This document shows positions 38,412 to 41,817 of a stretch of 64,000 nucleotides of DNA, in pieces; the first letter of the stretch is position 1, and each line of letters begins with the position of its first letter. The DNA comes from an uncultured Methanolobus sp. (GTDB lineage Archaea > Halobacteriota > Methanosarcinia > Methanosarcinales > Methanosarcinaceae). The position numbers were made by a program, and so were the translations under genes. The stretch lies in contig OY776215.1 in the NCBI GenBank assembly GCA_963675495.1, positions 2,272,001 through 2,336,000 of the forward strand. Reading direction: 5' to 3'. A model generated the notes under the pieces. It saw nothing but the letters and a program-made list of their open reading frames with translations. It was not told where the DNA came from and ran no database searches.

Positions 38412-39650
38412 TTAGGCAAACATACTATGAGGCATATTTGGATCTTCTTCTTCATCTGCAACTACTTTTTCGTAAGCATCCATCATATCTTGCATGGTGA
38501 CGCTTTCACCGCGTCTTCTCAGGACGAACATTCCTGCCTCTTTAGCAATTATCTTCAGGTCGGCACCGCTAAGGCCATCTGTCATCTTTGCCAACTTATC
38601 AAAGTCTACATCTTCAGCGATGCTCATCTTGCGCGCATGTATCTTCAGGATTTCCAGGCGCCCCTTTTCATCGGGTATTGGAACTTCGATAACACGGTCA
38701 AAACGTCCCGGGCGAAGCAATGCAGGATCTAGCAGGTCTATTCTGTTGGTTGCAGCAATGACCTTTACATTCTGTGTTGCGTCAAATCCATCCATCTCAG
38801 CCAGAAGCTGAAGCATAGTACGGTTAACTTCCGCAGAGCCTGTGGTGCCGTCGTGTGTGCGCATACCGCCCACTGCATCGATCTCATCAATGAACAGGAT
38901 GGATGGGGACTTGTCGCGAGCCATCTGGAACACATCCTTGACCAGTCGTGCACCTTCTCCTACGAATTTCTGCACAAGATCGGAACCTGACATGCGTATG
39001 AATGTAGCATGTGCTCTTGAGGCGACCGCCTTTGCGATAAGGGTCTTGCCTGTTCCGGGGGCACCGTAAAGCAGCACACCGGTTGGTGGTTCGATACCTA
39101 TCTTTTCAAAGAGCTCTGGTTCAAGTAGTGGGAGTTCCACAGATTCTATGACCTCTTTGAGCACGTCATCCAGACCGCCTATCATATCATAGTCGATTCC
39201 CGGGGAGTTGATAAGTTCCATTACCTGGGCGCGCACATCGGCTGCTCTGGATATAATAGATATAATAGAGAATGCGGCATTAACACAAACTCTCATGCCC
39301 GGTTCTACATTCAGGTTGGCTGGTATCTTTGTTACAACTTCCTGGTTATTTCCGTGCTGCCTGATGAGTGCCTGACCGCTGTCAACTTCCATTACTGTGG
39401 CAATGAATAGGGGTGGGGTGGTCAGTTGTTCTATCTGCCTTTTGAATTTGTTAGTTTCTTCAAGGTAATTATTAGCTAACATACTTGCTTCAAGTAACTT
39501 AGCACGCATGTTCTCATTATTGACTTTAAGTATCTCGATTTCGTGAAGTAATGATTCTACACTTTTTTCTTCAAGGCTATCAGATTCGATCTGCGCCTTC
39601 ATTTTTGAGCCATTGGTGTCAATTGGTGATTCAGCACTACTATTTGACAT
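38412..39650 (-). CDS. pan: Proteasome-activating nucleotidase
   Basis: Coiled coil + OB fold; GAPGTGKT, ILFIDEID, ATNRIDLLDPALLRPGRFDR; C-terminal HbYX-like MFA. Confidence 0.95.
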   Translation of the reverse strand: MSNSSAESPIDTNGSKMKAQIESDSLEEKSVESLLHEIEILKVNNENMRAKLLEASMLANNYLEETNKFKRQIEQLTTPPLFIATVMEVDSGQALIRQHGNNQEVVTKIPANLNVEPGMRVCVNAAFSIISIISRAADVRAQVMELINSPGIDYDMIGGLDDVLKEVIESVELPLLEPELFEKIGIEPPTGVLLYGAPGTGKTLIAKAVASRAHATFIRMSGSDLVQKFVGEGARLVKDVFQMARDKSPSILFIDEIDAVGGMRTHDGTTGSAEVNRTMLQLLAEMDGFDATQNVKVIAATNRIDLLDPALLRPGRFDRVIEVPIPDEKGRLEILKIHARKMSIAEDVDFDKLAKMTDGLSGADLKIIAKEAGMFVLRRRGESVTMQDMMDAYEKVVADEEEDPNMPHSMFA

Positions 39651-40147
39651 AGATTCCTACTATAGTTATCATCGGATATAAAACCAACCGAATTTAAGCA
39701 TAGTGTTTTTGCCTTCTGAATGCCATTTTCTTTATTATTGTGATGTTTTTTCATTTTTAGGCTTATTCACTGAAAACATTGTTAATCTGTTTAATTATGG
39801 TCTTTTTGGTGAAAGAAGCTTTAAAAACAGATTTTTAATATTATTTGTATATAGTTACAGTCTGTTGGTATTATAATGCGTATTATAGTCCTAAATTCGA
39901 CAAATAACGAAATATTTATCTATCATCATTACAGTTGTTCTATTGTAGACGTGTTCTAGGATGTGTTTGCATTGCTTTATGGCTGTGTTAAATGTTTTAA
40001 TTCCAAAAAAAAGCTTTATTAAGGCTTTGATTTATCTCAAAACATTTGCATACTATTATTAGAGCAAATATTTATATAATATTAAATACATGTTAGTAAT
40101 TGTGAGTCACATAGTAACAACGTGTTCCTGATGTGTTCACAAAACAA

Positions 40148-40234
40148 CGGATCAAGATTAAAAAGAGCAACACCATTGTCTGAGGGGATAAATGGTTTGT
40201 GTGTCCATCAAATCTGAGGGGATGGATGGATCCG
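40148..40234 (+). promoter_or_regulatory. Candidate structured 5' leader: twin hairpins with identical UGAGGG loops
   Basis: TCTGAGGGGAT at 40179-40189 and 40213-40223, each within a stem. CGGATC/GATCCG could close a multiloop. Confidence 0.55.
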
Positions 40235-40250
40235 CAACGAGGCAAAAAAG

Positions 40251-41213
40251 ATGAAGGTTCGGCTTGAGATCATCGATGACGATGGAATTGAAATCGCAAC
40301 TTCAACATTTGGAGGAAAGCACTGGAAAAGGCGCCTTCTTGCATTTATTGACACGGTCGAAGACGAAACAGACATTAATACCGGACCTTCATCTAATTCA
40401 TCTTATTCTGAAGTTCCCGTAGCTGAGCAGCATGCATACCAAGCACAATTTGTTCAGCAACAGGTGCCTAATTTACAACAACCAGGCCAGCAGGCTGCTT
40501 CAACACAACCGTCTCAGGGACCAGTTCAGCAACAACAGGTTCAACAGGCAGTTCCGCAGCATTTTGTTCAACAACAGCAGGTCCAGCAACCGATGCAACA
40601 GGTAACTGTGCCGCTACAGTACAATCAGCAATTCCAGCAATCTCAGATTCCTGCAATGCAACAGAATTTCCAGCAGGCTTATCCACAATACCCTGCAAAT
40701 CAAAATAATCAACAACCTATATACTTACAACCTACTACCCTACCTCCTGTAGGAATGCAGCAGTATGGGCAGCCGGCACAACCTTTGTCATCTACGGTTC
40801 ATCAACCTCTTACTTCTAATCAACAGGTTCCTCTGGCTGTTTCTAATCTTAATCAACCTGTACAGGCAGAAGTACGTTCAGCTCCGACTCGTCGCAGAAC
40901 ACCGATGCTTCAGGACAGGCTAAATGATATGTCTCTGACGATAAGTGAACGTCTTGAGCTTTTCCTTAGATATGAATATCCTCGTGTATGGTTCTCTTCA
41001 CAGGATGTCCAGCAACACTATGAAAGGATATACGGTACAATAAAGCAAAGCACTGTGTCCACATATCTGTCTCGCATGTTCCGCAAGGCTCTTCTTGAAC
41101 GCAGAGGCAACAGGACGCAGCGTGAATATCGTTACATAGCTGACGAACCTGAATCCACTTACAAGATGGAAGAAGTGCCAGGCGCACCAGTGTATCATGG
41201 GATCCAATATTAA
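40251..41213 (+). CDS. Hypothetical protein: small N-terminal domain, Gln/Pro-rich linker, C-terminal winged helix
   Basis: QQQV repeats over aa ~60-200; C-terminal WFSSQDVQQHYERIYGTIKQSTVSTYLSRM..LERRG..REYRY. Confidence 0.8.
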   Translation: MKVRLEIIDDDGIEIATSTFGGKHWKRRLLAFIDTVEDETDINTGPSSNSSYSEVPVAEQHAYQAQFVQQQVPNLQQPGQQAASTQPSQGPVQQQQVQQAVPQHFVQQQQVQQPMQQVTVPLQYNQQFQQSQIPAMQQNFQQAYPQYPANQNNQQPIYLQPTTLPPVGMQQYGQPAQPLSSTVHQPLTSNQQVPLAVSNLNQPVQAEVRSAPTRRRTPMLQDRLNDMSLTISERLELFLRYEYPRVWFSSQDVQQHYERIYGTIKQSTVSTYLSRMFRKALLERRGNRTQREYRYIADEPESTYKMEEVPGAPVYHGIQY

Positions 41214-41260
41214 TTCGATATTGGCAGCTATTTAATAGTCCTATAGCTATATCTGTTCAT

Positions 41261-41497
41261 ATGCGTTCATCTCAGAATCTTTTCAATATAGGTTTTACTC
41301 TTATTATTCTGGGATTTGTTCTTGTTTTTGTAGGTTTGCTTGTTTCAGCCTTTAGCGGAGCAGGTGAATTCGGTGGCGTTATCCTTATAGGTCCTATTCC
41401 AATAGCATTTGGCTCCTCTCCTGAGATCACTTTATCAATGCTATGGGCAGGTGCTCTTATTACTGTTGTATATCTTCTGCTGCGGAGGCGACTCTGA
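41261..41497 (+). CDS. DUF131/TIGR00304 membrane protein
   Basis: GGVILIGPIPIAFGS signature. Confidence 0.85.
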   Translation: MRSSQNLFNIGFTLIILGFVLVFVGLLVSAFSGAGEFGGVILIGPIPIAFGSSPEITLSMLWAGALITVVYLLLRRRL

Positions 41498-41817
41498 TGA
41501 TAGGTTCATATCTTGTGATCATTGGTATGTTGATGTTCATCTCCGGCTTTTTCCTGATATTTGTGGCAAGCTTTTATGGGGTTGGAAATTCGGAAAAAGG
41601 GGATGAACACACTTCTTTTCAAGGGGGTCATAATTCATGGACTTCGTCCCCTTACACGGGTCAGGAGTCAATTCCAAACAAAAACAAAGTTCAGGGTAGC
41701 GGAATTATCATGCTTGGTCCTATTCCCATTATCTTTGGTTCGGACAACAAAAGTACTTCGACTATGGTCGTATTGGCAATTGTCCTCATGGTGCTGTACT
41801 TTCTGATATTCATGTAA
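41497..41817 (+). CDS. DUF131/TIGR00304 membrane protein
   Basis: GSGIIMLGPIPIIFGSD. ATG 41497 overlaps the upstream stop (TGATG). Confidence 0.85.
   Translation: MIGSYLVIIGMLMFISGFFLIFVASFYGVGNSEKGDEHTSFQGGHNSWTSSPYTGQESIPNKNKVQGSGIIMLGPIPIIFGSDNKSTSTMVVLAIVLMVLYFLIFM

Follow-up and report, generated by a model that had tools for sequence, protein, structure and literature searches.

Genes and Features at the Locus

The subject of this analysis is the 5′ leader of an uncharacterized regulator gene from an uncultured Methanolobus, the genome of which is a single contig of 2.87 Mb. The window, that is, the whole stretch of DNA analyzed, comprises 64,000 nucleotides (nt) of this contig (OY776215.1, positions 2,272,001 to 2,336,000), and positions are given in window numbering on the plus strand unless stated otherwise. 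The gene, delimited by its open reading frame (ORF), domain searches and a predicted structure, occupies 40251–41213 and encodes a protein of 320 amino acids. Two similar hairpins lie upstream of it, exactly where a preliminary description made from the letters had placed them and with the like loop core noted there.

As determined from the sequence and with RNAfold, the core of hairpin 1 (40172–40196) consists of an ACCATT/AATGGT outer stem and a GTC/GAT inner stem, and that of hairpin 2 (40204–40230) of TCCATC/GATGGA and ATC/GAT. The same purine-rich loop motif, UCUGAGGGGAU, is present at the tip of hairpin 1 (40179–40189) and at the tip of hairpin 2 (40213–40223), so the tips are about 69 and 35 nt 5′ of the start codon. 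Both hairpins can be drawn in an extended form. Hairpin 1 then reads GCAA.ACCAUU ... AAUGGUUUGU (40167–40200), and hairpin 2 reads UUGUG.GUCCAUC ... GAUGGAU.CGCAA (40197–40237); in an alignment of 61 distinct Methanosarcinaceae leaders, 91.8% of the cells are paired for helix 1, and 90.7% and 92.9% for helices 2 and 3. The extended hairpin 2 has a folding energy of −17.8 kcal/mol (z −4.1 against flank shuffles), and its foot stops one base 5′ of the main Shine-Dalgarno (SD) sequence, GAGG, at 40239–40242, which is 8 nt 5′ of the start codon. An SD-like 4-mer is found at −18 to −3 in 96 of 100 leaders. The 3′ strand of each hairpin holds an AUG, and the ATG at 40226 opens an out-of-frame ORF, as had been described.

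The TATA box read from the sequence, TTTATATA, lies at 40071–40078 as previously described, and the block aTaTTTATATA is kept in all 30 aligned Methanolobus leaders. Because of the position of this box and the usual archaeal TATA-to-start distance, transcription would begin near 40100 (about 40098–40103) and the leader would be about 150 nt long. Its 5′ part (40100–40142), as delimited from the minimum free energy fold, alignments and leader listings, carries TGTGAG...TTCACAA repeats and forms a 5′ stem-loop in the fold of the source genome. Three metatranscriptome contigs from relatives (90–95% alike) cover 39983–40178 and 40042/40057–40211 and add about 30 nt of unaligned sequence resembling a relative's hairpin 2; as they start 5′ of the TATA box, they show neither the transcription start nor transcription proper. 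Such contigs, of 192–242 nt, span just promoter and leader (39983–40244) and come from three metatranscriptome runs of at least two studies. Those from two runs stop just 5′ of the start codon, an observation given no weight because contigs cannot show RNA ends.

Conservation of the Twin Hairpins

The leader is conserved as a distinct block. At least two exact copies of TCTGAGGGGAT are present 5′ of the orthologue in 30 of 30 Methanolobus genomes, one leader having three copies of the motif. In the same 30 genomes, the hairpin block has a mean pairwise identity of 88.8%, with 41 of 87 columns invariant, and the first 30 nt of the ORF (40251–40280), including their synonymous sites, reach 93.7%, 23 of the 30 columns being invariant. 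The corresponding identity is 58.6% upstream of the TATA box (14 of 136 columns invariant) and 48.8% at the third codon positions of the conserved C-terminal domain. As judged from these alignments, selection acts on the nucleotides of the hairpin block, and the conserved RNA may reach into the coding region. The preservation of loops and pairing in orthologous leaders, on which the preliminary description depended, is observed throughout the 30 Methanolobus leaders and in other genera; GAGGGGAT is invariant in all 61 aligned Methanosarcinaceae leaders.

The element is also rare within the genome. The exact 11-mer occurs four times in the 2.87 Mb, twice in this leader, and among 2210 ORFs, only 2 have GGGGAT at least twice in the 120 nt before the start, and 45 have one copy. 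A covariance model of the twin hairpins (R1) gives one match in the source genome, with E 3e-18, and the next best match has E 0.86. The other GGGGAT(G/A)(G/A)AT sites of this genome, inspected in a search for a complementary RNA, look random.

Evidence for RNA Structure

On the plus strand, RNAfold gives −8.9 kcal/mol (z −1.8) for hairpin 1 and −12.2 kcal/mol (z −1.6) for hairpin 2, and the reverse strand folds more weakly (−4.5 and −9.0 kcal/mol). Since the z-scores are only −1.8 and −1.6, the fold of the single sequence is within the range of chance, and the non-random character of the hairpins comes from the comparison across genomes, not from folding energy. In the 61 Methanosarcinaceae leaders, the two-hairpin structure has 91.6% of its cells paired, compared with 27–59% when the partners are slid against each other. 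Over all lineages, 133 of 137 unique instances of the motif lie within a hairpin of at least 5 bp, with a median z of −2.6 and with z below −2 in 91 of the 137 (flank shuffles).

The most informative changes are those in which the stem is exchanged and the loop is kept. The stem CCAU/AUGG is replaced by CCCC/GGGG in locus L099, by CCACC/GGUGG in L121 and by CCGU/ACGG in L120; a third copy of the motif in L025 sits on CAGAAC/GUUCUG, and the inner stem AUCU/GGAU becomes UUCU/GGAA in L095. In other families the stems are GCCAUA/UGUGGC, GCCACA/UGUGGC, CACUAUC/GAUAGUG and CAUCAUC/GAUGAUG. Replacement of a stem around a constant loop is, for aligned sequences such as these, stronger structural evidence than two-sided changes, and the compensation between the outer stems proposed in the preliminary description is borne out by it in other genera and families. 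The structure is strand-specific: exchanges between G-U and A-U, as at one pair with 37 GU and 23 AU, are compatible only with an RNA of the plus strand. The geometry is fixed as well. Among 62 twin leaders, the last motif starts 33–39 nt 5′ of the AUG and 31–38 nt after the previous copy.

In Methanohalobium (loci L116 and L119), hairpin 1 is intact and the stem of hairpin 2, AUCCACC/GGUGGAU, is kept, with the G-rich motif gone and a plain ACCA or UUCU in the loop.

A possible closing helix, CGGAUC (40148–40153) with GAUCCG (40229–40234), had been suggested to join both hairpins in a multiloop. Its pairing is kept in Methanolobus, where 98.8% of the cells are paired and the states pass through G-C, G-U and A-U without A-C (pair 66–163: GC 20, AU 4, GU 3, other 1). 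The helix is limited to this genus and overlaps hairpin 2 at its base, in competition with the extension of hairpin 2 (UUGUG/CGCAA), which is preferred by RNAalifold. The GAUC palindromes at 40150, 40230 and about 40269 are able to pair mutually.

The moderate stability of the hairpins (−8.9 and −12.2 kcal/mol) and the burial of the motif AUGs within them would suit an RNA thermometer, in which the hairpins melt with temperature and so set translation, and Methanolobus includes cold-adapted species. Such a device, which had been offered as one version of the regulatory RNA, is extremely unlikely here, as neither hairpin includes the main SD (40239–40242) or the main AUG (40251), the latter being unpaired with a probability of 0.93. 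Moreover, a thermometer needs pairing strength and not an invariant loop of 8–11 nt kept across families.

Linkage to One Gene Family and Variation between Lineages

The RNA is found about once per genome and strictly linked to the same gene in many methane-cycling archaea. Of 151 Methanosarcinaceae genomes, R1 matches 90, in nearly every case at one site; six R1 matches are weak (E 0.0037–0.0072). In the 20 genomes outside Methanolobus that are present in both the RNA and the protein lists, the match ends 11–16 nt before the protein match in every case. Three genera are poor in the RNA, with 1 of 34 genomes matched in g19 (one weak match), 0 of 11 in g24 and 0 of 6 in g25. The protein was sought in 8 genomes from genera without the RNA and in none of them was it present, two controls being positive, and its profile matches 0 of 13 genomes in g19 and 0 of 4 in g25. 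The genera without the RNA are also without the gene. The regulator had been called an orphan, a label that does not hold, since a profile search detects its family in 157 of the 401 genomes sampled from the phylum. In total, 535 relatives were counted, and 80 of the approximately 535 loci were listed.

Outside Methanosarcinaceae, the leaders persist in altered form in Methanoperedenaceae, ANME-2c and Methanocellales, among others, where the core shared across families is GGGGAUGG. ANME-2c-type leaders have one copy of the motif. In those of Methanoperedenaceae, a GGAGGGGAA hairpin precedes a covarying GC hairpin with U6 after it, those of Methanocellales read CU(G/A)GAGGGGAUGGG, and further families show AUCUGGGGGGAUGGG, AGGGGAUG loops, or three to four copies of GGGAUGGAUUGG. 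Among 100 unique leaders, GGGGAT is present within 120 nt of the start in 82, twice in 65; the other 18 comprise 16 from Methanoperedenaceae with a GGGGAA variant, one cut by a contig end and one without the motif. No clear motif was seen in the leaders of families f16 and f7.

The structures downstream of the motif hairpins differ by lineage: a helix adjacent to the SD in Methanolobus, an SD hairpin in Methanococcoides, and the GC hairpin with a U-tract in Methanoperedenaceae. The last of these, which stands between the motif hairpin and the SD, resembles an attenuator, and in most leaders of this family (L031, L034–L035, L038–L039, L048, L133–L154) a run of 5–7 U lies directly before the SD GAGG. 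A scan of positions 39650–41300 for a GC-rich hairpin followed by a U-run gave no attenuator, the scan being of the bacterial type and therefore uninformative for an archaeon.

A conserved sensor joined to lineage-specific downstream structures, of which the Methanoperedenaceae hairpin with U6 is an example, would also suit a small riboswitch for a ligand or an ion, made of one or two like hairpins whose loops bind the ligand or dock with each other. The two like loops at a fixed spacing of 31–38 nt recall guanidine-II (mini-ykkC), in which two small hairpins with identical conserved loops precede the ribosome-binding site. The guanidine-II loop consensus is an ACGR tetraloop, whereas the loops here are GAGG/UGAGGG. 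We regard a riboswitch as quite unlikely. Several lineages are single-copy, the conserved part is only about 8–11 nt, Rfam gives no match (see below), the regulated gene is a putative regulator with no transporter or enzyme pointing to a ligand, and the neighboring genes vary outside Methanosarcinaceae.

Upstream Reading Frames and the Likeness to a Shine-Dalgarno Sequence

The preliminary description proposed control through a translationally coupled upstream ORF (uORF) of 20 codons, from the ATG at 40192 to the TGA of the ATGA at 40251–40254. This uORF is present at 40192–40254 with the ATGA overlap, and a nested uORF of 10 codons starts at 40222; however, neither is conserved as a coding unit. 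The 20-codon frame is found in 5 of 32 Methanolobus leaders, and elsewhere the hairpin-1 AUG gives 3, 8, 10, 16 or 24 codons or a frame that continues into the main ORF. The frames slip through single-base indels, and the main ORF always begins with ATGA. The overlap is explained by the conserved ATGA(A/G) start and was given no weight for these two reasons. Control through the coupled uORF is not supported, as the frames and lengths differ between close species, and both uORF coupling and an N-terminal extension of the protein were dropped. Some deposited gene models of orthologues (P0096, P0068 and P0051) begin at a motif AUG, as MVCES..., MNGYTRH... and MDLSRG..., and are probably over-extended relative to the conserved MK(V/I)RLEI start.

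The motif could nevertheless address the ribosome more directly, as a set of SD look-alike loops and AUGs serving as decoy or standby sites for the 30S subunit, or as tiny uORFs metering ribosomes. The 3′ end of the 16S rRNA read from the source genome is GGATCACCTCCT, and GAGGGGAU is complementary to it at 7 of 8 positions, being one base off the full complement, GAGGUGAU. An AUG follows the G-run by a few bases in nearly all instances, and several TGAGGGGAT sites in the source genome have a possible gene-start ATG, of putative genes, within about 12 nt. In addition, the hairpin-1 uORF terminates at the UGA of motif 2 in 7 of the 32 Methanolobus leaders, and a 10-codon uORF ends on the ATGA in 19 of them.

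These points have to be set against several others. Where the motif fixes G, the real upstream regions of this genome prefer U (GAGGTGA 21 times, GAGGGGA twice); because of this preference, the motif, as read against these regions, is not an ordinary SD, and no conserved ORF follows it. Distant families drop the GAGG part and keep GGGGAUGG. The motif AUGs are paired in stems (unpaired probability 0.00–0.35), and neither the frames and lengths nor the peptides of the uORFs are kept even between close species. The ATGA overlap may arise without selection, as two AUGs 4 nt apart cover two frames and the ATGA start supplies the TGA. A ribosome-directed device is accordingly considered doubtful.

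The Gene Product and Its DNA-Binding Potential

Relatives of the product are annotated as "hypothetical" or as "BlaI/MecI/CopY family". The Pfam family Penicillinase_R scores 19.8 bits against a cut-off of 22.6, no relative was found by sequence in PDB or NCBIfam, and the matches in the protein atlas are to unnamed archaeal clusters only. The AlphaFold2 model, for which 44 aligned sequences were the input, predicts a confident N-terminal beta-beta-alpha unit (residues 1–36), a disordered Q/P-rich linker of about 180 residues (39–217) and a confident winged helix (residues 220–300) with a predicted local distance difference test score of 93–96. With Foldseek, the model retrieves only generic winged helices (BlaI/MecI, RosR, Fur and Z-alpha; E 0.02–0.1).

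The stretch from the TATA box to the hairpins holds TTCACA/TGTGAA repeats (40100–40142), and repeats of the TTCACA type recur in the leaders of other families (L031–L048, L133–L154, L185–L204), in several of which they are direct repeats about 11–12 bp apart. They persist in f16, in the leaders of which no G-rich hairpin motif was seen 5′ of the start. The winged-helix product may have its DNA operator in these repeats. In four f16 loci (L195–L198), the recognition helix is without an otherwise conserved Arg (YLSRM becomes YLASM, YLADM or YLSGM), and the wing reads RKGSR against RRGNR in other families. It is possible, from these alignments, that protein and leader co-vary in f16, the four loci being among those in which no G-rich motif was seen.

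The hairpin motif itself may also be considered as a DNA site, the direct repeats of TCTGAGGGGAT being bound on DNA by the winged-helix product, which would act as a roadblock downstream of the promoter. The winged helix is of the kind found in BlaI/MecI-type repressors, and the motif is repeated one to four times between promoter and start. However, the flanking stems covary and use G-U pairs, which are A-C on the other strand; the motif is on the sense strand and near the ribosome-binding site in every leader examined; and the TTCACA repeats, about a helical turn apart and persisting in f16, are the more general repeat. A DNA operator made of the hairpin motifs is therefore considered highly improbable.

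The gene is preceded on the minus strand by a divergent AAA ATPase of the PAN type (38412–39650, domain search) and followed on the plus strand by two TIGR00304/DUF131 membrane protein genes (41261–41497 and 41443–41817), the ORFs of which overlap by 55 nt. This order, PAN ATPase, winged-helix gene and two TIGR00304/DUF131 genes, is kept in most of the Methanosarcinaceae loci fetched and was not found in the other families. As the flanking genes accompany the winged-helix gene in Methanosarcinaceae only, the neighborhood was rejected as a clue to function.

Comparison with Known Regulatory RNAs

A search of Rfam 15 with positions 39600–40600 at E ≤ 10 gave best matches of E 2.3–8.9, far below the gathering thresholds, and with eight distant leaders from other lineages the only match at E ≤ 1 was a tRNA elsewhere in one locus. 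Nothing on the motif was found among the papers listed for it or for cis-regulatory RNA of archaea and Methanosarcinales. The twin-hairpin leader is apparently undescribed, in keeping with the preliminary description, in which it was not recognized as a known family. A G-quadruplex, a mimic of an anticodon arm and a box C/D small RNA spanning both motifs were rejected as poor fits, judged from sequence alone.

The leaders bound by CsrA/RsmA in bacteria are similar in that purine-rich GGA loops stand on short hairpins in two or more copies tens of nt apart, the last beside the SD. The comparison refers to the CsrA site consensus, and GGGGAU is in or at the loop in the 133 hairpin-borne instances of the 137. 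The complete source genome, however, has 0 matches to the CsrA family (PF02599), for which the controls in E. coli, B. subtilis and T. maritima were positive, and there is one target per genome here in place of a regulon.

The decoy small RNAs of the Csr system have a possible counterpart as well. A separate conserved intergenic element of about 95 nt is located outside the window on the minus strand (source genome 2200659–2200909; L049, L050), flanked by an RtcB-like and a PUA-like ORF, as labeled from their translations. A search of 24 other Methanolobus genomes gave a match to it in every one. The element is closed by the stem GAGGAAACGGG/CCCGUUUCCUC, in which changes compensate each other, and its sequence GAGCAAC...UGUUUGAGGGGAUGAAUGGUUUUG resembles hairpin 1 of the leader. 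Neither a conserved ORF nor an Rfam match was found for it, and R1 matches it only with E 1.7. It is possibly a leader-related small RNA.

The thrS operator of E. coli is an autogenous operator with two like hairpins. It resembles the present leader in its two similar stem-loops upstream of and beside the ribosome-binding site, and in the competition of the product with the 30S subunit that is proposed here. Unlike in thrS-type operators, there is no evidence here of mimicry of another RNA, and the product is a winged helix without known RNA-binding activity.

The last comparison is with L7Ae, a general archaeal protein for which binding to a kink-turn (k-turn) in its own 5′ mRNA leader and regulation of archaeal translation have been reported (PMC5539422, PMC6298567). 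Here, too, a protein bound to a leader hairpin would control translation, and CUGA-GGG-GAUGA is like box D′/box C′ with a 3-nt loop, so that the hairpins might be kink-loops (K-loops) bound by L7Ae. Hairpin 2 reads UCUGA GGG GAUGA in most Methanosarcinaceae, and L7Ae family genes are present in the source genome. The GA pairs that define a K-loop are, however, missing from some lineages. In Methanolobus, hairpin 1 reads GAUAA, so that the C-G pair is broken, families f10 (UCAGGGGAUGG) and f15 (GGGAUGGAUUGG) are without the 5′ GA, and the A-U to U-A exchange in L095 fits a Watson-Crick inner stem and not the K-loop register. A global factor such as L7Ae does not explain one site per genome, and the leader of the L7Ae gene itself in the source genome is without the motif. 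This alternative is thus very unlikely.

A Gene-Specific Translational Operator as the Favored Explanation

The preliminary description proposed a cis-regulatory RNA with two like loops, and this general claim stands, the element being conserved, strand-specific, gene-specific and outside Rfam, although the versions with a coupled uORF and with a thermometer do not. The loop is constant and its stems vary, the position beside the ribosome-binding site is fixed, the one copy is tied to one gene, and the downstream structures are lineage-specific; for these reasons, the leader is regarded as an operator or sensor RNA. We tentatively favor, at somewhat under an even chance, a translational operator that is specific to its gene and to which a trans-acting factor would bind, most plausibly the product of the gene.

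According to this proposal, the two hairpins would be the conserved sensor part of a cis-regulatory RNA within the 5′ leader, each tip presenting the same purine-rich sequence, and the loops would be operator sites for an RNA-binding factor. The gene's own product is the candidate factor because it is the only one known to travel with the element, and control would then be autogenous and translational. Binding would fix the hairpins beside the SD and hinder the loading of the 30S subunit, and the lineage-specific structures 3′ of the hairpins would be the read-outs.

Several observations weigh against this explanation. Two-sided changes amount to only 9 cells in 4 pairs of the 61 Methanosarcinaceae leaders, the covariation being thin because the sequences hardly vary within this family. 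The pairing register around the G-run varies between families, as would likewise suit a ribosome that recognizes the G-run in single-stranded form. The domain predicted for the product is a generic winged helix, and its nearest folds, at weak E values, are mostly DNA-binding repressors. The TTCACA repeats are the better candidate for the product's DNA site. Since the winged helix looks DNA-binding and the TTCACA repeats are the likelier site, binding of the product to its own RNA is a guess from co-occurrence.

A wider form of the proposal would reconcile both kinds of site. In it, the leader would be part of an ancient ribonucleoprotein feedback switch present in several families, in which the winged-helix protein binds both the GGGGAUGG loops of its own mRNA and the TTCACA sites on DNA, and in which the approximately 95-nt RNA of Methanolobus acts as a decoy through its copy of hairpin 1, making the whole an analogue of Csr/Rsm assembled from unrelated parts. 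This wider form is judged unlikely.

Implications

To our knowledge, few cis-regulatory RNAs are known in archaea. The leader RNA described here is short and sharply defined, occurs once per genome and is tied to one uncharacterized protein family. The lineages already provide natural experiments, with one, two, three or four copies of the motif, with a hairpin-2 stem that is without the loop motif, and with differing downstream read-outs. The Methanosarcina-like genera g19 and g25 are without both the gene and the leader, and if the same is true of tractable Methanosarcina, these would be a clean host for reporters. If it is true that the product binds its own mRNA, the family would be an example of a winged-helix regulator with DNA as well as RNA among its targets.

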